A stretch of 64,000 nucleotides of DNA, taken from Opitutaceae bacterium (GTDB lineage Bacteria; Verrucomicrobiota; Verrucomicrobiia; Opitutales; Opitutaceae). The position numbers and the translations under genes were made by a program. A model generated the notes under the pieces. That model had not been told where the DNA came from, made no database searches, and saw nothing but the letters and a program-made list of their open reading frames with translations. Location of the stretch: NCBI GenBank assembly GCA_028284235.1, contig JANQSC010000020.1, forward strand, positions 128,248-192,247. The letters are read 5' to 3'. Every line of letters begins with the position of its first letter. Positions within the stretch are counted from its first letter, which is position 1. Below, piece after piece: positions 6,519-33,167 of this stretch.

Positions 6519-8009
6519 CTAGAAACCGCGGGCTCCACCGCCCCCGCCTCCACCACGGCCGCCACCGCCCGGTCCGCCTCTTCCCCCTGCGGGAAGCTCG
6601 ACGCCGTTGGCTTCGGCCCATTCGCGCAATTCCGTCATTACGGGTCGCATTTGAGTGAAATCGCCCGACTCCTTGATCGCGTTCAACTTCGCCAGCAATT
6701 CCGGAGGAAGCTTGTCGCCTGCCGCCTCGATGATTGGATCGATCCGAGCGGCAGCGCCTCCACCACCCGATGGGGCTCTCGGCGGCCGCGCGCGGGCAAC
6801 CGTCTCGCCTTCTTCCGGCTCTTCCGCGGCGATCTGCACGCCTGACTCGTCCGTGACGTTCACCGGCCAGCCTTCGAGCGCGTAAGGCACTTCGGTCAAA
6901 CAAAGCTTGTCGCCCGCATTCAGGCCGCTTTGCACGACGATGACCTCGTCCGTCTCCCACGCGAGCTCGACGGAACGGCGCGAAAGGTAGTTCTCGCTGT
7001 CGACCAGAAGCACAAACTCGTTTTCACGCAGCAACACGCGCGGAATCACGTAAACATCCTCGAGCGTCTTGCCTTCAATTTTCGCTTGGACAAAGGAGCC
7101 GACCTTGAGCGGGGGACGTCCATCCGCAGACTCGCCATACGGATTTCGCACTTGAGCGACTACGAATAGTTGGCGACTTCTCGAGTCTACCAAACCTTCA
7201 GTATGCGTAATGCGGCCGCGCCATTCATAAGTCTCCGTTCCGATCGTGGAGCTCAGCGTCACTACCGGCCCCTCTCGAAACGACGGATTTTCCCCGCGGT
7301 AGACGGACGGGAGGTCCAAAAATGAAAACTGCGTCGCGGTCAAGGGCAGCCGGACTTCGGCAAAGTCCACCGCGTAGATCCGGGCGAGCTGATTGCCGGG
7401 TGAAACGTACTGCCCCACGTCCACGTTCTTGGAAAGCACACGGCCCGCATACGGGGCGCGGATCTTGGTACGCTCCAAGTTCCGCTCAGCGGTGGTTAGT
7501 CGAGCTTTCGCCGAGGCAGTCGCCGCTCGGGCTTGCTTGAGCTGCGGCTCGCGCAGAGTCAACGGATTGGCCTCGACGCCTGGATTCAAGCGCTCCCAGT
7601 CGAGCTTGGCTTGCTCGTAGCGGGCGAGTTCCTCGAATTCGCGCAACTCCGCTTGAGCCAAAGCCGCGTCGGCCACGATCAGCTCCGTCTGGTAGTCGCT
7701 ATCGTCGATCTCGAGCAAAACGTCGCCCTCTTCGAAAAATCCGCCTTCGGTGAAGTTTCGAGCCACGTCGACGATCTGGCCCCGCACTTCCGGGATCAGT
7801 GTACTGGTCGTCCGCGCCCGCACTTCGCCTTGCGTCTCCAGAGTGACCGTGTACGACTCCGGAGCCAGTTTGCGGGCGACAACGTCCGGCGTCGTGCTGA
7901 AGTTAGGACGCTGCCTCGGCTCGGGAGCCGTGGTTACCAGCAAATAGAATACAGTACCGCCGATGGCCAGCAAGACGATCGGCACGAGTATTTGAAGGAG
8001 ACGTTTCAT
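6519..8009 (-). CDS. RND periplasmic adaptor (membrane fusion protein) with a long C-terminal extension
   Basis: N-terminal TM anchor; lipoyl-like halves (EVRGQIV...GGFFEEGDVLLEID; IRAPYAGRVLSKNVDVGQYV); lies between OMF and permease. Confidence 0.92.
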   Translation of the reverse strand: MKRLLQILVPIVLLAIGGTVFYLLVTTAPEPRQRPNFSTTPDVVARKLAPESYTVTLETQGEVRARTTSTLIPEVRGQIVDVARNFTEGGFFEEGDVLLEIDDSDYQTELIVADAALAQAELREFEELARYEQAKLDWERLNPGVEANPLTLREPQLKQARAATASAKARLTTAERNLERTKIRAPYAGRVLSKNVDVGQYVSPGNQLARIYAVDFAEVRLPLTATQFSFLDLPSVYRGENPSFREGPVVTLSSTIGTETYEWRGRITHTEGLVDSRSRQLFVVAQVRNPYGESADGRPPLKVGSFVQAKIEGKTLEDVYVIPRVLLRENEFVLLVDSENYLSRRSVELAWETDEVIVVQSGLNAGDKLCLTEVPYALEGWPVNVTDESGVQIAAEEPEEGETVARARPPRAPSGGGGAAARIDPIIEAAGDKLPPELLAKLNAIKESGDFTQMRPVMTELREWAEANGVELPAGGRGGPGGGGRGGGGGGGARGF

Positions 8010-11291: not shown

Positions 11292-12098
11292 CTATTTTTC
11301 GCCTTCGTTCACGACAGGATTCGAAAGGCGGCCGATCCCTTCAATCTCCACCGAAATTTCGTCGCCAGACTTCAACCACAAAGGCGGCGTTCGAGCCATC
11401 CCCACCCCGTGCGGCGTTCCCGTCAAAATGACAGTCCCCGGCAGCAAGGTCGTGCTCCCGCTCAGGAAGGCGATTATCTCGCGAACGTTGAAGATCATGT
11501 CCCGCGTGTTCCAGTCCTGGACCACTTCGCCATTGAGCGTCGTCCCGATTTCGAGGTCGTTCGGATCCGGAATCGCGTCAGCCGTCACCAAGCACGGACC
11601 CATCGGCGCGAACGTATCGAACGTCTTTCCCCGGCACCATTGACCGCCGCCCATTTTCTTCTGCCAATCCCGAGCGCTCACGTCGTTCGCGCAGGTGTAG
11701 CCCAACACGTAGTCGAGCGCGTTTTCCACAGTCGCGTTCTTGCACGGCTTTCCGATCACGACCGCCAACTCGCATTCGTAGTCGACCTCTTCGCTCGCCA
11801 GAAATGTCGGGATCTCAATCGGAGCGCCTGGATGTTGCAGCGCGTTTCGCCCTTTGATAAAGAGAACGGGAAACTTCGGGATTGGCGCTCCGCTCTCTTC
11901 GGCGTGGAACTTGTAGTTCAATCCGATGCAGAGAATAATCTCCGGGTCCACCGGCGCCAGCAATCTCCCCACGTCTGCAGCCTCGTCCGTAGGCGTCATC
12001 GCGCCAAACAGGTCGCCTTCAATTCGGTAAACCGCGCCCTCGCGCTTCTCGCCGTATTGAATATTTCCCGACGGATCTTCGTATCGTACAATCTTCAT
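11292..12098 (-). CDS. Fumarylacetoacetate hydrolase family protein
   Basis: ILCIGLNYKFH, VDYECELAVVIG, ANDVSARDWQ, GKTFDTFAPMGP and GTVILTGTPHGVG motifs. Confidence 0.92.
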   Translation of the reverse strand: MKIVRYEDPSGNIQYGEKREGAVYRIEGDLFGAMTPTDEAADVGRLLAPVDPEIILCIGLNYKFHAEESGAPIPKFPVLFIKGRNALQHPGAPIEIPTFLASEEVDYECELAVVIGKPCKNATVENALDYVLGYTCANDVSARDWQKKMGGGQWCRGKTFDTFAPMGPCLVTADAIPDPNDLEIGTTLNGEVVQDWNTRDMIFNVREIIAFLSGSTTLLPGTVILTGTPHGVGMARTPPLWLKSGDEISVEIEGIGRLSNPVVNEGEK

Positions 12099-18138: not shown

Positions 18139-18364
18139 TTTTACAGGATACGGCCCGAAATCTTCTGGACCAACTCAAGTGATCAGCTAAATCGTAGGGC
18201 CAGCGCTCGCGCTGTGCCGCGTTGCTTTTAACTCTTCAAACAACTGAACTACGCGGCACGCCGCAAGCGACGGCCCTACAATTCCCAACAACACGTCAAA
18301 ATCATCAAGTTTCCGCGATAGCGGGATCCTGTAGGCCCGTGGCACGGGCCGTATCCTGTTAAAA
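18139..18364. repeat. Family A element, copy A2, containing a GTAG REP doublet
   Basis: ttttacaggatacggccc ... aatcatcaagtt-tccgcgatagcggg-atcctgta-GGCCCGTggcACGGGCC-gtatcctgttaaaa. Confidence 0.85.
18194..18279. repeat. GTAG-type REP doublet (REPIN-like) R1
   Basis: gtagggccagcgctcgcgctgtgccgcg ... cgcggcacgccgcaagcgacggccctac; related doublets at 23901 and 31710. Confidence 0.85.
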
Positions 18365-19374: not shown

Positions 19375-19511
19375 AATTAGAATGATGGGTAATAAGGAGC
19401 GTGACTATTAGCAAGACAGTCGAAGATTGCGAGCCCGAATCCAAAACGCCGAAAAGGAGTTTATGTTCCTGTTACATTGATCGAACACAGTCGCGGGAAG
19501 CAATATTTTCG

Positions 19512-19644
19512 AAACAGGATACGGCCCGCTTTACGGGCCTACAGGATGGCCCCGCAGTGGCGTGGCCAACAGGATCTTCCAATAATCATGTTCCCGCAGC
19601 GCGGGATCCTGTAGGCCCGTAAAGCGGGCCGTATCCTGTTAAAA
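19512..19644. repeat. Family A element, copy A3 (shortest, 9-bp spacer)
   Basis: Perfect 35-bp inverted repeat aacaggatacggcccgctttacgggcctacaggat (19513-19547) / 19606-19640. Confidence 0.9.
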
Positions 19645-19647
19645 AAA

Positions 19648-22600
19648 CTATTCCAGCGTGCTCATCCACTGCCAGATCGCCTCGAACTGCTTCTCCGAAT
19701 CGCCGTCGTAGTAGTTCGGATTTACCGCAGTCTCTTTGTCGCTCGTGTACTTCGGCATGATCGTCGTGGGGACAATGCGCTGCGGCCAGTGCATCCAGCT
19801 GTGATAGTACCCGGTCCGTAGACGTTCTCCCGACAGTCTCAAATTGGGGCCTTGCCCCTCGAACGCTTGAAGAGCAGGCGTATCCCCCACAGCATGACAC
19901 GTCACGCACGCGTAGCCCTCCAATCCAATCAACTTCGATCCAATCGCAACGGATTCTTCTTCAATTTTCGGGTGTTCCGCTTTGATCGGCACGCCTTGAC
20001 CCGCCGCCATACTTTTCGCCAGCAATTGAGCTCGACTCTTGAATGCTGGCATCCGCGCTTCCATCCACGGACGTGTTTTTTCCGCGGTCCCTGCAAACAA
20101 TTGCTCCAACCATTCAGCCTGCAACTTCTCCCCCGCTCGGCCGATGTCGGGTAGCGTATTCTCTCCGGAATGACATTGAACGCAATTCAGTCGCTCCATC
20201 GTCCGCTCCACGTATTCGCGTGGCGTCCAATTCGTCAGCGCGTTCGCGGTTGAATTGCGAAACGAGATCAGCGCCAGCCGATCCTCGGCAGACAGATTTA
20301 ACTCGGGGGCATTTCCTTTGTTCTCGGAAACGCAGCCCCGCGCAACCCAGTCCGCCTCCCACATTGCCTCGAATCCACTCGTCTCGACATGGAAGCGCTC
20401 ATTCCCGCCACCATGGCACACGAGACAGTTGTTTGCGACGATCGAACGACCCGCCTCTGTGTTGCCAGCGCCCGCGGTGGGCGTTTTCGGACGTTCCGCC
20501 AGCACATAGGCCGCGATATCCGAAGCCTCCTCTTCACTCAGTCGAAGGTCCGGGAAGACTGTATCCGGAAAATGCTTCGCGGGATGTTGCAAAAACTCGC
20601 GCAAGCCGCTGTCCGTGTGTTTCGACGATTCGGTCAACTCGTCGATCCAGAAGTTCAAATGCAGCGTATCCACCAGGGCTTTTCCCCTTTCCTCGCTCCC
20701 TGAAACGGGCTTCACCACATCGCCTGAACGCAGAGTCGCCAGATAGGCGGCAACATCCGCGGCGCGGTCCGGCGCGACCGTAGGACAAAGATCCTGAGGA
20801 TTCCGCACCCACGCTTCAATCCATCCTTGATTGAGGCGATTCCCAATATTCTCGAAATCAGGCAGCGTTTCTAGCAGCTCTGGCATTACCGTGCTCATGT
20901 CCATTCCGCGAGGCGTCTCATGACATTGAATACAGCGAGCAGCGGCAAAGAGCTCGCGCCCATCACGCCTACGGGCGTATTTTTCGATCAAGTCGTTGGA
21001 TACGGTCAAGAACGCCTCGTCCGGCACCGGTTCCCAAACGAAATTCTCGCCGCTCCACAAGAACTGCAATCGCCCTTCGCCGGGCTTGGCGCTCTGGTAG
21101 CTCGCGTAGATCGAATGCCCGCCGGACTCTAACTCGATCGGATCGCTCTTCAAGGGCAGCTCCCCTTCGAACACGCGCTCCCCGTCGATCAAAAGCGTGA
21201 CCCGCCCGTCTCCGACCATTTTAAAGGCGATCTGATCGCGCGACTCGACCACCAAAGTTCCCTCGAACAAAGTCTCAAACGTCTTCCTGACATTCATGAA
21301 CGGCGTGATCGGCGTTCCTTCCGGCACCGTGAACGCGATGCGGTCGACCATCACTGCATCGTCCGCGGCTTCGTAGGCCATGGTCATTGTCAAACCCGGC
21401 TCGCCCAAGGGCATCGAAGGCAAGTCCGGAAGATTCGTAAAGTCCAAGCCGTGCTCGGTGAACGCAGGACGCAAATTGTGAATCGTGTTCCAGATGGTCT
21501 CGCGAAACGGCTCTCCCGAGAGAGACGTGATGTCCATTTTTATCTCCATCTGCATCGCTTCCGTCATATGGGGCGCATACAGAAATACGGATCGCCCCCC
21601 GCCGAGAACCTTCGCCGCTCGAATGGCAACTGTATCCACATTGTTAACTGCCGCCTTTGACGGAGATTTCAAGGCCTCTGCTTCTAGCGCTTCGTCACGT
21701 CTGTCGATGGAGAACCGACCGCTCCCGTACTGCGGCCCCCAAATGTAATTCCACTTCTTTACGATGTAGCGGCGCGGATCTTCCGCTTGATCCGGATCGA
21801 TCGGTCCTGAAAAATCAATTACAATTCCGTTGTCATATGCGCGAATCCCCGTCGGCACTGGCGTCGACTCCTCCAAGTAACGCACGCGCTGGAATCCCGT
21901 ACCGCCGTTCGTCTGCCAGCCGCGCAGTCCGATCACATACAACTCCCCGCTCTTCGGATGGAACTTTCCCCGCTGGGCGGGAATAGACAGATCGATTGGC
22001 AGCTTATAGACGCCACCTTGAACCTGGCCGTCTACCTCGTCCCGCATCACTCGAAAAATCGACGATTTTCCGTAGGAAAAGTGTAGCATCTCGTTCCGGT
22101 GAACGGGTCCCCAGGGGCTGTTTTCCGGCACCCAAATCTGGCTCCCGCTCGAATTATCCACATTGTACGGCAGCCAAACCAAGGGACGCTCGTAATCGGT
22201 CGGCGCTCCGGGAAGCGTGCGGACGAAGTCCCGTCCGTCCCATTCGCTGGGCACCACGCCATGAAAACTGCCCGGTTGGCTCCAAGTGATTTTGCAGCGC
22301 GGCACGTGCGATCCTTCGTTCTCGCCCGTGGTAATCTCGCCGTTCGGGCCAACGCCCACACCACCCGGCGCCCGCAAGCCCCACGCATAGCGTTCCAAGG
22401 TCGAGCCATCGGGGCTCACTTTTAAAACCGATCCGCTGTGATCGGTCCACGGACTAAACCCCCGCCCGCCCGCTTGCACCGGCATTCCTTTGGAAAAATA
22501 GAAATTCCCCTCGCGATCAGTCTCCAGGTCGAAACTGAATTCGTGAAATCCCTCCGTAATCAAAACGTCGTTGTTGAAGCACTCGTAGAAGTCCGCTTCG

Positions 22601-23778
22601 CCATCCTCGTTCAGATCGTGCAAGCGCGTGATCTGGTCGCGGCCCTGCGTGTAAATCACGCCGTCCACGATTTTCAATCCGAGGGTTTGAAACAAGCCAC
22701 TCGCAAACCGCTTCCAAGTGATCGATTGCAGATCGCCTTCCAGCCCTGCCGCAATCCAGACATCCCCGTTCCAAGTCGAAAACGCCGCCCGGGTCCCGTC
22801 CTCGAAAAAGTCGAATCCGCCGAAGCGAATATTGGAAAACCAGGGATTGTCGTTGGGCAGAGGTATTGTGTCGACCGTGTATGGAGTCGCATCGATTCCC
22901 AACTGGCCCGAGGTCTCGAGCGTTTCGGAGTAAATTCCCGGACCGCCCTCCGTCAGCGCGCTGAGCGATGTTTCTGCATATTCGGGAGCCACGTCTCCGT
23001 TCCTCGAATACACGAGCTCAAATCGGACTGTCGATTCCGAAGGCGGAACGGCAACTACAACTCGTCCATCCGAACGCGTTTCCAGAGAAACGCCGTCCCG
23101 GCCGCCGCGCACGTAGTGGGAGACTGCGCGCGACTCGTCCGCGCCTTCCTCGACCAGCAATTCGAGTCGCTTGTCCCTCGGGCCGAGCTCGAAAGATCGC
23201 GAGAGCATCCCGTTATTCAGTGACGGCATTTCCAGTACCGTCGCTCTCCCAACCGTGTACTTGAGGACCACGGAATCGCCATGACGATACAACCCTTTGA
23301 AGCGGCCCACTTCATGCGGCATAGGACCGTTTTTGAGCGGACGCGGATCCTCCCACTCGCCCTCGATCGCCCAACCGGGACCGCCTTCGTTGATGAAGAA
23401 ATACGCGTCGCGATCTTCCGGCATGTAGGAGTTGCCGTGATGCTGGCGATCCCAAGGCGTGCCCGCGAAACGAACCCGCCCTTCGAACCCCGCCACCATT
23501 CGCAGCAATTCCGTGTCGAAGACGACACTCGCTTCTTCGTTTGGACCCACTTTGATCGCCAAACCTTTCAACGCGGCGACCTTTCCGCGGGGTCCAAATT
23601 GCCGGAACGTGTCAGCGATGAAGGGCCCCGTATCGACGAGGTCCCACCAATCGGCGTTCGGCTTCTGCGCCGCCCGTTCCTGGGCGCGTTCGCCACGCGT
23701 TTGATCGGCAGCCTTCGTCGCGGCAACCAGGGTCGCTACGGACAGCAAAACAATAAGTACACGTTTTTGGATTCGCAT
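19648..23778 (-). CDS. Large exported DUF6797 / beta-propeller / PA14-like / multiheme cytochrome c protein
   Basis: Signal peptide; four CxxCH motifs (CIQCH 20920-20934, CLVCH 20413-20427, CVQCH 20170-20184, CVTCH 19894-19908); IRFGGFDFFEDG...STWNGDVW propeller region; domain names are from recognition, not a search. Confidence 0.85.
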   Translation of the reverse strand: MRIQKRVLIVLLSVATLVAATKAADQTRGERAQERAAQKPNADWWDLVDTGPFIADTFRQFGPRGKVAALKGLAIKVGPNEEASVVFDTELLRMVAGFEGRVRFAGTPWDRQHHGNSYMPEDRDAYFFINEGGPGWAIEGEWEDPRPLKNGPMPHEVGRFKGLYRHGDSVVLKYTVGRATVLEMPSLNNGMLSRSFELGPRDKRLELLVEEGADESRAVSHYVRGGRDGVSLETRSDGRVVVAVPPSESTVRFELVYSRNGDVAPEYAETSLSALTEGGPGIYSETLETSGQLGIDATPYTVDTIPLPNDNPWFSNIRFGGFDFFEDGTRAAFSTWNGDVWIAAGLEGDLQSITWKRFASGLFQTLGLKIVDGVIYTQGRDQITRLHDLNEDGEADFYECFNNDVLITEGFHEFSFDLETDREGNFYFSKGMPVQAGGRGFSPWTDHSGSVLKVSPDGSTLERYAWGLRAPGGVGVGPNGEITTGENEGSHVPRCKITWSQPGSFHGVVPSEWDGRDFVRTLPGAPTDYERPLVWLPYNVDNSSGSQIWVPENSPWGPVHRNEMLHFSYGKSSIFRVMRDEVDGQVQGGVYKLPIDLSIPAQRGKFHPKSGELYVIGLRGWQTNGGTGFQRVRYLEESTPVPTGIRAYDNGIVIDFSGPIDPDQAEDPRRYIVKKWNYIWGPQYGSGRFSIDRRDEALEAEALKSPSKAAVNNVDTVAIRAAKVLGGGRSVFLYAPHMTEAMQMEIKMDITSLSGEPFRETIWNTIHNLRPAFTEHGLDFTNLPDLPSMPLGEPGLTMTMAYEAADDAVMVDRIAFTVPEGTPITPFMNVRKTFETLFEGTLVVESRDQIAFKMVGDGRVTLLIDGERVFEGELPLKSDPIELESGGHSIYASYQSAKPGEGRLQFLWSGENFVWEPVPDEAFLTVSNDLIEKYARRRDGRELFAAARCIQCHETPRGMDMSTVMPELLETLPDFENIGNRLNQGWIEAWVRNPQDLCPTVAPDRAADVAAYLATLRSGDVVKPVSGSEERGKALVDTLHLNFWIDELTESSKHTDSGLREFLQHPAKHFPDTVFPDLRLSEEEASDIAAYVLAERPKTPTAGAGNTEAGRSIVANNCLVCHGGGNERFHVETSGFEAMWEADWVARGCVSENKGNAPELNLSAEDRLALISFRNSTANALTNWTPREYVERTMERLNCVQCHSGENTLPDIGRAGEKLQAEWLEQLFAGTAEKTRPWMEARMPAFKSRAQLLAKSMAAGQGVPIKAEHPKIEEESVAIGSKLIGLEGYACVTCHAVGDTPALQAFEGQGPNLRLSGERLRTGYYHSWMHWPQRIVPTTIMPKYTSDKETAVNPNYYDGDSEKQFEAIWQWMSTLE

Positions 23779-23900
23779 AGGTAAATAGTATGCTCGTCCC
23801 AGGGAATAGGTAACGGTATTTCCTGAGAATGTCAGCGACTCAAGGAGAAACTAAGGTGCAACAACAAGAATTCAATAAGTCGCTAGTTCTGTGTTTGAGT

Positions 23901-24011
23901 GTAGGGCCTTCGCTCTTGTCTCGGCGTAGCTCGAAGGGCAGAGACGGATGCGAAGCGCCGCGAAGTTAGATCAATTTTCAACTCGCGGCATGGCGCAAGC
24001 GCCAGCCCTAC
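23901..24011. repeat. GTAG-type REP doublet R2 with a 34-bp insertion in the left REP loop
   Basis: gtagggccttcgc[insert]tgcgaagcgccgcg ... cgcggcatggcgcaagcgccagccctac. Confidence 0.85.
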
Positions 24012-24025
24012 ATTTTCGACCGATC

Positions 24026-25432
24026 CTACACGCCCTCAATTCCGAAGTAGTCGGCCGCGTTCTGGAAACAAATGTTCTTCACCATTCCGCCGACAAGATC
24101 CATGTCACGCGGAAGAGCGCCGCTTTCCACGTCCGCTCCCACCAAATCGCACAAAACACGCCGGAAGTACTCGTGTCGCGGATACGACAAAAACGAGCGG
24201 GAATCCGTCAGCATTCCCACGAAACGGGGAAACAATCCGAGATTCGACAATGCGTTCATCTGCGCCTCCATCGCTTCCTTCTGATCGAGGTGCCACCAAC
24301 CCGTGCCCAGTTGCATCTTTCCGGGAGTTTTTCCGTCCTGAAAATTCCCCAGCATCGTCGCGACCGAGTAGTTGTCCGACCAATTCAAATTGTACACCAC
24401 CGTCTTCGGCAACTGGTTGGTCCGGTCCAGACTGTCGAAAAACCGGCCCATCACCCCGACCTGGGAAATGTCCGCGATCGAATCGAATCCCGTGTCCGGT
24501 CCAAGCGCCTCGAACATGCGTGTACTGTTGTTTCGCAGGGCCCCGACGTGGAGTTGCATCGTCCAGTCTTTGTCCGCGTTCCAGCGTCCCACTTCGCGCA
24601 TGAGATAGAATCCGAATTGCTCCTTCTCCTCCACTGTCGCCGCGACACCACTACGGGCCTTGTCGTAGATCGCGCCGATCGCCGCCTCACTCGTTTCCGC
24701 AAAGAAGCAACGCTCCAAACCATGATCCGTCAATCGACCGCCCATGTCGTGGAAAAAATCGTGTCGCGCTTTCAAGGCCGCGATGAATCCAGAAAAAGAG
24801 TCCACGTCCATCCCCGACACCTCGGACAAGCGTTCCGCCCATCCGTTGAAAGCGACCGGATTGTCCACCGCCAGCCCTTTGTCGGGTCGAAAAGTCGGCA
24901 CCACTTTCGTGTCGATACCGAGATTTTGAATCGCCTTGTGGTTGGCGAGCGAATCGACCGGGTCGTCCGTGGTGCCCACCACCTTGACCTTGAAATTCTC
25001 CAAGATGCCGTGAGCGCTGAGCGAGTCCTCCTTCAGTTTGGCATTCGCCGCATCCCAAATCTCCTGGGCTGTGTCTTCGTTGATTGACAAGTCGATTTCG
25101 AAGTAGCGCTTCAGTTCCAGATGGCTCCAGTGGTAAAGCGGATTGCGCAGCGTATTCGGCACCGTCCGACACCAGGCGAGAAACTTGTCGTACGGATCCG
25201 CGTCGCCGGTGCAGAGCTCCTCGGATACGCCATTGGCCCGCATCGCCCGCCACTTGTAGTGATCCCCTTCGAGCCAAATTTCAAACAGATTGGAGAAACG
25301 ACGGTTGCTCGCTACGTCTTCGGGCGGCAGGTGGCAATGATAGTCGTAGATCGGCTCGTCTTCGGCGTATCCATGATACAATTCCCGAGCGGCATCGCTC
25401 TGTAAAAGAAAATCATCGGTAATAAAGGTCAT
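24026..25432 (-). CDS. uxaC: Glucuronate/uronate isomerase
   Basis: MTFITDDFLL, IYDYHCHL, EIWLEGDHYKWRAMRANG, NPLYHWSHLEL and GMLTDSRSFLSYPRHEYFRR motifs. Confidence 0.97.
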   Translation of the reverse strand: MTFITDDFLLQSDAARELYHGYAEDEPIYDYHCHLPPEDVASNRRFSNLFEIWLEGDHYKWRAMRANGVSEELCTGDADPYDKFLAWCRTVPNTLRNPLYHWSHLELKRYFEIDLSINEDTAQEIWDAANAKLKEDSLSAHGILENFKVKVVGTTDDPVDSLANHKAIQNLGIDTKVVPTFRPDKGLAVDNPVAFNGWAERLSEVSGMDVDSFSGFIAALKARHDFFHDMGGRLTDHGLERCFFAETSEAAIGAIYDKARSGVAATVEEKEQFGFYLMREVGRWNADKDWTMQLHVGALRNNSTRMFEALGPDTGFDSIADISQVGVMGRFFDSLDRTNQLPKTVVYNLNWSDNYSVATMLGNFQDGKTPGKMQLGTGWWHLDQKEAMEAQMNALSNLGLFPRFVGMLTDSRSFLSYPRHEYFRRVLCDLVGADVESGALPRDMDLVGGMVKNICFQNAADYFGIEGV

Positions 25433-30291: not shown

Positions 30292-30493
30292 TTTGTCGTC
30301 GCTGCACTAGGATGACCTATCCGTCTCCGTCCCGACTAGCGGGACTACGCCGCGACAAGCCAGACAAATAGGACACCTCCTGCGGAGACGAACAAAGTCA
30401 TCCTCTAGCCGATGAGACCTTATTTTCGCGTAGCGAATCCTACTGTTCCCGCAACGCGGGAACTCCTAGCCCCGACCCTGTCGGGGAGATGAC
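30292..30493. repeat. Family B element, copy B2, with a nested 40-bp family D insert
   Basis: Right arm ccttattt-TCGCgtaGCGA-atcctact-GTTCCCGCaacGCGGGAAC-tccta-gCCCCGACcctGTCGGGGa-gatgac has the same scaffold as the B1 right arm. Confidence 0.75.
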
Positions 30494-31622: not shown

Positions 31623-31916
31623 TTGGAACAGTGATTTCTGTGAAATCAAATCCCGTCGGTGACGGGAACAGGATCCCGTTTCACGGGAGCAGGATGATCC
31701 AACCGAACCGTAGGGCCAGCGCTTGCGCTGTGCCGCGATGTTGGATCGCACCAGATTTCTCTAACTACGCGGCACTGCGCGAGCGCAGGCCCTACATAGA
31801 GGTGCAATGACCCAGAAGTCCATCAAGTTCCCGACCCGCCCCGTCAATGACCCCGACTCAGTCGGTGGCTTGGTGGGACGGGTCGGGATCAAGCGAGCGA
31901 AGCGCATTCTGTTAAA
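31623..31916. repeat. Family A element, copy A6, containing a REP doublet and a nested 39-bp cassette
   Basis: ttggaacagTGATTTCtgtGAAATCAaa-hairpin-acaggat-hairpin-agcaggatgat ... catcaagtt-hairpin-atcaagcga-GCGAAGC-gcattctgttaaa. Confidence 0.85.
31710..31795. repeat. GTAG-type REP doublet R3
   Basis: gtagggccagcgcttgcgctgtgccgcg ... cgcggcactgcgcgagcgcaggccctac; the left REP differs from R1 at one position. Confidence 0.88.
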
Positions 31917-32916: not shown

Positions 32917-33167
32917 TTGGAACAGTGATTTCTCCGAAATCAAATCTCGCACGCGAGACCAAGATCCCGCTGCGCGGGAGCAGGATGGTCACTCGGGTAG
33001 TGCACGAGAAATTCCCCGTCTCTATCGCGGGCGTCGCGCATGTCTCGGCGTAGCTCGAAGTGCGAAGACGGAAGCAACGCCCCTACACAATTGCAACGTC
33101 ATCAAGTTGGCTCGCTAGAGCCATCAAGCGAGCGATCCCTCTTTGAGGGGGAGCGCATCCTGTTAAA
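32917..33167. repeat. Family A element, copy A7, containing a GTAG REP interrupted by the 34-bp insert
   Basis: ttggaacagTGATTTCtccGAAATCAaa ... agcaggatgg ... tcatcaagtt-GGCTCgctaGAGCC-atcaagcga-hairpin-gcatcctgttaaa. Confidence 0.85.

Follow-up and report, generated by a model that had tools for sequence, protein, structure and literature searches.

REP-like hairpins are abundant in bacterial genomes, yet how they move and diversify is poorly understood. They can themselves be invaded, as seen with the insertion sequences IS1397 and ISKpn1, which enter the loops of palindromic units, and with ISPpu10 and IS621. ISPpu9 is another insertion sequence that targets REP hairpins (PMC8450116). REPs and REPINs are mobilised by RAYTs (TnpA-REP), a group of Y1 HUH transposases (PMC2817692, PMC3116915, PMC3333891, PMC3479197). 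TnpA-REP acts only on single-stranded DNA, requires GTAG and stem mismatches, and leaves no duplication (PMC3333891), and Y1 classes related to it have been linked, in Planctomycetes and Acidobacteria, to hairpins of atypical form (PMC6006769). Some REPs are also found nested within other palindromes, including GTAG-23 of T. roseum, GTAG-15 of A. variabilis and CGTC-1 of H. neapolitanus (Di Nocera et al. 2013, PMC3733652), and the T. roseum genome additionally holds empty "target" palindromes (PMC3733652).

We identified a comparable nested arrangement in a 64-kb window, the whole stretch of DNA analysed here. The intergenic spacer at 23779-24025 lies between two minus-strand genes, one for a 1376-aa DUF6797/cytochrome c protein (19648-23778) and the other uxaC (24026-25432; Pfam UxaC, E = 2e-196). 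Within it, 23901-24011 consists of two GTAG-type REP hairpins, inverted relative to each other and separated by 21 nt. The right-hand REP (23984-24011, minus strand, GTAGGGCTGGCGCTTGCGCCATGCCGCG) is intact and forms a tail-to-tail, REPIN-like doublet with the left-hand one (23901-23962, plus strand), whose arms, at 23901-23914 and 23949-23962, were placed by alignment to intact copies. Both belong to what we call family A, with the consensus GTAGGGCC-NNCGC-T(T/C)-GCGNN-G(T/C)GCCGCG, derived from the intact window copies 18194+, 18279-, 31710+, 31795- and 24011-. The NN positions of the stem covary (AG/CT, GT/GC, TG/CA, GG/CC). Two empty family-A doublets, at 18194-18279 and 31710-31795 (the latter known as "R3" in the first-pass annotation; neither is assigned a strand), served as comparators.

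The left REP reads GTAGGGCC, TTCGC, T, then CTTGTCTCGGCGTAGCTCGAAGGGCAGAGACGGA (23915-23948), then T, GCGAA and GCGCCGCG, placing a 34-nt cassette within the 2-nt apical loop. Deleting 23915-23948 restores an ordinary family-A REP, with no target-site duplication. The first-pass annotation of this DNA had read the locus as a 34-nt insert in a REP loop with a compensatory change in the stem, and that reading holds: the restored REP fits the family-A consensus, and TTCGC/GCGAA is an ordinary covarying variant of the family. The absent duplication and the one-base ambiguity of the junction that it reported are likewise both seen at 23901-24011, since the sequence is compatible with a TT loop cut as T^T or with a TC loop and an insert at 23916-23949. 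We favour 23915-23948 because other genomes show the borders CY...GACGGA. In the predicted DNA fold, the REP stem of 23901-23962 is retained around the cassette hairpin. The whole doublet folds far better than shuffled sequence (z = -4.8; none of 200 shuffles is equally good); small pieces taken singly give an uninformative z of about -1. Two more repeat families occur in the window (18320-18360, 19509-19545, 19590-19645, 31660-31700 and 32960-32990). One is a GTAG REP, GTAGGCCCG-NNNNN-CGGGCCGTATCCTGT, and the other a hairpin, (T/A)TCCCG-NNNN-CGGGA(T/G)C(C/A)(T/G)G, that is often fused to it; both adjoin family-A doublets, forming BIME-like mosaics.

Copies of the cassette were scored with a covariance model, R1, built mostly from copies in other genomes; it replaced a relaxed regular expression that found as many matches in shuffled sequence. 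The first-pass annotation had proposed a motif search for further copies. The loose 13-mer TGTCNCGGCGTAG, allowing two mismatches, is unenriched in the window (9 matches against 6.3 expected), and it is the full two-arm pattern that proved diagnostic. Under R1 the 64-kb window contains exactly three strong copies, at 42-51 bits, the next-best, non-cassette match reaching 13 bits. Copy 1, at 23915-23948 on the plus strand (CT-TGTCTCGGCGTAG-CTCGAAGGG-CAGAGACGGA), scores 47.4 bits, with E about 5e-7, and carries AGA for the consensus GAA and a T.G pair in its tip stem. Copy 3, also 34 nt (33039-33072, plus strand; 51.1 bits), is hosted by a diverged minus-strand family-A REP (33026-33086; arms 33073-33086 and 33026-33038), whose loop it occupies and relative to which it is thus inverted. 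Removing it leaves GTAGGGGC-GTTGC-TC-GCGAC-GCCCGCG, the insertion site being the TC loop. Copies 1 and 3 are slightly degenerate and therefore probably old. Copy 2 (30320-30359, minus strand; 42.5 bits) is 40 nt long owing to an extended tip stem-loop, GTCCCG-CTAGT-CGGGAC, and its host is not a family-A REP. The window copies thus take both orientations relative to the REP and to transcription, copy 1 being antisense and copy 2 sense. Beside copy 2, at 30360-30392, the flank ATTTGTCTGG resembles the 5' arm of the cassette, and CGGAGACGAA (30383-30392, plus strand) resembles the 3' arm on the opposite strand; these pieces may be remnants of further copies.

The source organism could be followed beyond the window in a coral-metagenome run (X1), in which 91% of the words sampled from the region are present and which yields same-organism contigs at about 13-17x. 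The TTCGC/GCGAA subtype of the REP occurs there without an insert at no fewer than three other loci, and at least six further REP-plus-cassette composites lie elsewhere in these contigs; a second copy of the copy-3 composite is also present. By depth over the right REP, the organism has about 270 family-A REPs, and the short form dominates the long one (about 270 against fewer than about 10). Cassettes of the copy-1/copy-3 type number about 25-35 by depth, with alignment ends clustering at 33039/41 and 33072/75. The copy-2 type recurs at three further loci, where the alignment covers only 30319/20-30357/60 and the flanks are unrelated, giving at least four copies of this type in the metagenome. 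That the 34 nt are a discrete inserted unit, as the first-pass annotation held, is borne out by these unrelated flanks and by similarity that ends exactly at the cassette borders. In one case a copy-2-type cassette directly abuts one of the copy-1/copy-3 type. The Logan contigs from X1 stop inside the REP and cassette, ending at 23930 and restarting at 23990, so that these repeats fragment short-read assembly. UxaC homologues put the organism among Verrucomicrobiota/Opitutales, close to Pelagicoccus (77% identity). The closest database relative has a UxaC 83% identical to that of the window, and the cassette is absent from the 21 kb of this relative that we searched (Logan contig L126). Downstream of the orthologous uxaC, L126 carries a different GTAG REP (11400-11480; GTAGGAGCGGC-TTTAC-GCCGCGATC), and its gene order beyond uxaC differs from that of the window.

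Across a wider collection, scanned with one genome per species, at least 116 loci match the exact pattern TGTCNCGGCGTAG-N8-22-AGACGGA, against about 65 chance matches expected in the whole 596 Gb, and nearly all the matches listed carry a proper tip hairpin. The cassette occurs in bacteria of at least six phyla, a conservation that had escaped the first-pass annotation. By record titles, most of the listed loci belong to Verrucomicrobiota, Lentisphaerota, Kiritimatiellota and Planctomycetota, with carriers in Akkermansia and other Akkermansiaceae, Victivallaceae, Lentisphaeria, Kiritimatiellae, Opitutales and other Verrucomicrobiota, as well as Phycisphaerae, Sedimentisphaerales and Pirellulales. 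Outside this group, we found it in Desulfobacterota (Desulfobacterales, Desulfoluna, Desulfuromonadaceae), at three loci of one Nitrospirae MAG (Nitrospirota), and in Cloacimonadota, Marinimicrobia (Neomarinimicrobiota), Ignavibacteriota (Melioribacteraceae) and Alphaproteobacteria (Candidatus Enterousia). Two Acidobacteriota matches (L028, L078) were set aside as chance, having no tip hairpin and low scores. In the viral collection the pattern appears in only 9 contigs. One IMG/VR contig (L123, IMGVR_UViG_3300023022_000066) carries three tandem variant cassettes of 33, 30 and 30 nt at 7171-7264, of a TGCC...GGG subtype and in frame within the gene for a 719-aa Mu-like portal protein (Pfam Portal_Mu, E = 8e-37). 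The case recalls the in-frame REP and RPE insertions reported in O. terrae and Rickettsia. Most copies are intergenic (106 of 122 lie outside long ORFs), and strand bias is weak. Cassettes lie downstream of a same-strand gene in 40 cases and of an opposite-strand gene in 23, and between co-directional flanking genes both orientations are seen (17 vs 8, or 8 vs 5).

The cassette can be seen as a unit in repeats that occur both filled and empty. In no fewer than 12 host repeat families, copies of the two kinds align over 50-250 nt of flank and have the same borders. The pairs are paralogous copies, not orthologous sites, and neither a polymorphism at an orthologous site nor a new insertion was seen. 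No pair shows a target duplication, and no microhomology flanks the cassette borders in these comparisons. Filled and empty copies were matched in Nitrospirae (L001/L082 vs L111), Victivallaceae (L006/L050 vs L006/L088), Opitutales (L094/L099 vs L094), other Verrucomicrobiota (L100 vs L052) and Akkermansia (L034 vs L003/L060; L021 vs L046; L047/56/73 vs L047/L031; L048 vs L077; L067 vs L005). In many phyla, the cassette is cleanly present or absent in repeat copies that align on either side of it. One composite Akkermansia repeat of about 330 nt occurs in three states, with cassette A plus an inverted cassette B (L059, 100-620), with B only (L097, 1760-2250) and with A only (L036, 5830-6330; alignment A1), and a third, degenerate cassette-like indel of 37 nt is present in the same repeat. 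Two of its inserts are placed symmetrically and inverted just inside a GGGGTGGCA/TGCCACCCC stem. Overall, cassettes are found alone, in tandem, or paired in inverted orientation (L048, L059). The phrase "parasite of a parasite", coined for the window locus, is apt: cassettes lie in GTAG-REP loops of five or more lineages (the window, L012, L052/L100, L085 and L094/L099).

The cassette has the consensus CY-TGTCNCGGCGTAG-[variable stem-loop]-CGAAGACGGA, or in full CY-TGTC-N-CGGCGTAG-[tip]-CGAAGACGGA-(A/T), over a total length of 30-42 nt. About 22 bases are near-invariant across phyla. A 5' tail, CYTG, is followed by an imperfect stem, TC[N]CGGC-GTA / GAA-G(A)CGGA, and then by a variable, covarying tip stem-loop; in the stem, a single variable base bulges out and purines face purines (G.A, and GTA across from GAA). 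Good folding is confined to the written strand. Across 111 distinct copies, 95.3% of cells are paired in a single long hairpin (86.5% in shuffles) and 85 cells show double changes (23 in shuffles), neither value being reached in any of 500 shuffles; the alignment was fitted to the hairpin model, which biases these pair counts in its favour. U-A forms the outermost pair in 101 distinct copies and C-G in 7, with no copy unpaired at this position, and double changes at the tip pairs number 33, 32 and 11. Rare variants are compensatory as well: TGCC...GGG for TGTC...GGA in four lineages, and TACCT...AGGTA in L073. The former subfamily includes L034 1880-1917 and 2034-2068, L008 619-653 and 1037-1074, L089 7356-7390, L075 42-72 and L026 172-212. 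These compensatory changes support the single-long-hairpin register; a TGTC/GACG pairing and a kink-turn reading of GAA-GA were both rejected on their account. GTAG adjoins the variable tip stem, its G forming the first pair, and so lies within the longer covarying hairpin. It is replaced by GAAG in an Akkermansia subfamily (L034 1880-1917, L008 619-653 and 1037-1074, L089 7356-7390), and is thus not strictly required.

Tip pairs vary freely among 81 distinct tips, of which triloops are the commonest type (39/81). GNA accounts for 23 of these 39, where 1 in 16 would be expected, and GNRA for 4 of 20 tetraloops. Many tips are exactly GCGAAGC, GCGCAGC, GCGTAGC or GTGCAAC, or longer C-GNA-G hairpins. 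Exceptionally stable DNA mini-hairpins, d(GCGNAGC), are marked by such GNA triloops (PMC13037366), a hint that the cassette hairpin matters as DNA.

The first-pass annotation also expected hairpin tips to be the target. Among 125 virtual empty sites, 30% lie in a hairpin loop closed by at least 4 bp (14% in two controls), and 20% of copies have perfect flanking stems of at least 6 bp (3% in the control). This is an enrichment, and to that extent the expectation stands, but it amounts to a tendency only, as several host families are non-palindromic (for example Victivallaceae L006 and PVC L015). Hairpin-loop sites are found in about half of the filled/empty families (TTT^A, GTA^A, GT^AA, T^CCC, C^TCC and, in the window, T^T). 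GTAG lies within 25 nt upstream of 16 of 122 copies, compared with 3-6 in three control configurations. In 84% of copies an A or T follows the insert; the 5' flank is variable at position -3 and further out, with no fixed 5' target.

Taken together, we consider the 34 nt to be, with a probability of about 60%, a non-coding, hairpin-forming and non-autonomous REP-like mobile cassette, inserted as single-stranded DNA without duplication by a presumed HUH enzyme. That it behaves as a mobile unit follows from dispersed copies that share only the cassette and from host repeats that exist with and without it; the single-strand HUH mechanism is proposed by analogy with REP/RAYT systems. A trans-acting HUH/Y1 nuclease-joiner, either a RAYT or an IS200/IS605-like enzyme, would recognise the cassette in its folded single-stranded form and join it to DNA that is briefly single-stranded. 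Extruded hairpins, those of REPs among them, would offer preferred targets in their loops, with A or T usually following the insertion point, and some REP-plus-cassette composites might later be amplified as units. The gene content does not bear out the HUH-type insertion suggested in the first-pass annotation: a regular-expression scan of the window and of the matches listed (at least 116 loci) found no ORF with an HUH/Y motif (Y1/RAYT), and the junctions are at odds with the C^T rule by which E. coli TnpA-REP cleaves (PMC3333891). Both observations argue against simple REP/RAYT membership. Nor did any linked family recur among 1233 ORFs that lie no more than 2.5 kb from the cassettes (at least 116 loci) and were compared all against all by BLAST. 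Two inverted copies lying 2.1 kb apart in L094 were considered as a candidate element and rejected, as the genes between them are ordinary and include no transposase. In L061, duplicated copies flank a Schlafen/AlbA_2-type gene. A broader proposal, in which a single-hairpin cassette of 30-42 nt common to many phyla is mobilised in trans by a conserved candidate single-strand enzyme, possibly a housekeeping one, and seamlessly enters single-stranded loops, is more tentative, and we would lean somewhat against it at present.

As an alternative to mobility, the cassette might function as a structured RNA, for instance a catalytic hairpin or one that binds protein, with an internal loop (GUA/GAA) resembling loop E; selection would keep it, and the repeats around it would carry it passively. 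Its near-invariant bases, common to several phyla, its covarying hairpin and the 40 to 23 excess downstream of same-strand genes are what such a module would show, and the cross-phylum conservation of about 22 bases, unlike that of lineage-specific REPs, could reflect a cellular function instead. A preference of the folding strand for the lagging-strand template would likewise predict the modest excess of sense copies. We regard the RNA reading as unlikely, given that a single REP family contains the cassette in both orientations, that both are also seen between co-directional genes, that GNA triloops outnumber GNRA tetraloops, and that copies lie in frame inside a Mu-like phage portal gene. 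Rfam 15 offers no family for it, with nothing relevant at E up to 10 (501 nt) and nothing at gathering score (window plus 18 loci). Passive carriage would also leave unexplained the differing positions and orientations of the cassette within one Akkermansia repeat. Resemblances to group II intron domain V, tRNA, 5S rRNA and CRISPR repeats were considered and did not fit.

The same stable hairpin might spread with no dedicated enzyme, by stalling replication and being copied into other loops through template switching or ectopic gene conversion. Enrichment in hairpin loops, the lack of both a duplication and a linked gene, and the extreme stability of the tip mini-hairpins (PMC13037366) would all suit such a process. 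Yet whatever the phylum or host, the borders agree to the single base without flanking microhomology, many insertion sites are not hairpins, and the conserved arms, bulge and mismatches resemble a protein recognition surface, all of which make enzyme-free copying improbable in our view. The long REP might instead be the ancestral form, with the short family-A REPs arising from it by 34-nt deletions; at any one locus a seamless loss leaves the same pattern as a seamless gain, down to the one-base ambiguity of the junction. The first-pass annotation named this order of events as one that would count against an insertion, and the result went the other way. Short REPs far exceed long ones by depth, the cassette occupies REP loops in both orientations, and it also lies in non-REP flanks of the source genome and in unrelated hosts of other phyla, so that deletion is very unlikely. 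Chance resemblance, or local extension of a palindrome unrelated to the other copies, could be imagined for so small a motif, the loose 13-mer being unenriched, but the gap between the window copies and the best background match under R1 and an alignment comprising 111 distinct copies leave it a negligible prospect.

A mobile cassette of the kind we favour appears to be among the smallest units of mobile DNA on record, and is unusual in its size, its cross-phylum conservation and its optional presence inside other repeats. The searchable literature on the cassette sequence, on Akkermansia REPs and on nested REPINs yielded no description of it, which is not proof of absence. For the question of how REP-like hairpins move and diversify, it offers a clean handle: its borders are known to the single base, filled/empty pairs are plentiful in nature, and distant phyla have a conserved recognition surface in common, which gut Akkermansia also carries. 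Should a matching enzyme be found, the cassette would become a minimal substrate for single-strand cut-and-paste with a preference for hairpin loops, and the origin of composite, extended REPs would be explained. If the pan-phylum proposal is true, the cassette would diversify and extend repeat hairpins across bacteria. In practical terms, it is a recurrent breakpoint in metagenome assembly, as the source contigs breaking at 23901-24011 illustrate.

Several known systems share features with the cassette. Integron attC sites, which are read as folded single-stranded DNA, resemble it in architecture, with conserved, imperfectly paired arms, extrahelical bases and a variable terminal stem-loop. 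They are defined, however, by R''/L'' and L'/R' boxes (RYYYAAC...GTTRRRY) and an integrase; the cassette consensus has no such boxes, is much shorter, and adjoins neither gene cassettes nor an integrase. Classical MITEs have terminal inverted repeats and target-site duplications, whereas the terminal complementarity of the cassette is that of its hairpin only and no duplication is seen. The d(GCGNAGC) mini-hairpins (PMC13037366) share its tip sequences but are a structural motif and not a genetic element. IS200/IS605 elements and PATEs, which are miniatures derived from them, are likewise recognised through imperfect hairpins and insert and excise seamlessly without duplication, by a single-strand transposition that is known for them and inferred here. 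They have two distinct subterminal hairpins and a fixed 5' target of 4-5 nt, in contrast to one hairpin and a variable 5' flank. Insertion sequences that target REPs also insert in or at REP hairpins and are equally "parasites of a parasite", but they are at least 1 kb long, encode their own transposase or recombinase, and have terminal repeats or core duplications, while the cassette, at 30-42 nt, has neither.

Among palindromic repeats, the nested REPs of Di Nocera et al. are small tagged hairpins inside other palindromic repeats, as the cassette is. They are species-specific with one host palindrome each, whereas the cassette occupies many unrelated hosts and phyla. CGTC REPs (PMC3733652) have an unpaired CGTC/TGTC tag, a stem of 8-9 bp starting with A/T pairs, a loop of 4-5 nt and a CCA tail. 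The cassette does contain TGTC, but its TC is paired, its stem is G/C-rich and mismatched, its loops are commonly triloops, and it has no CCA tail. Compared with REPs and REPINs, which are lineage-specific and co-evolve with their RAYT, the arms of the cassette are conserved across phyla, its unit of movement is apparently one hairpin and not a doublet, and no RAYT gene flanked by the repeats (a REPtron) was found beside it in the window or at the at least 116 loci. REPs have GT[AG]G 0-2 nt 5' of the hairpin foot; the GTAG of the cassette stands at the foot of its tip stem yet inside the longer hairpin. The cassette nevertheless shares with REPs an extragenic, imperfect palindrome of 30-40 nt with mismatches in the stem, and is similarly multicopy, non-coding and free of target duplications. 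Like them, it also reaches high copy numbers outside genes, with three copies per 64 kb and, from contig depth, a total of about 25-35 or more.
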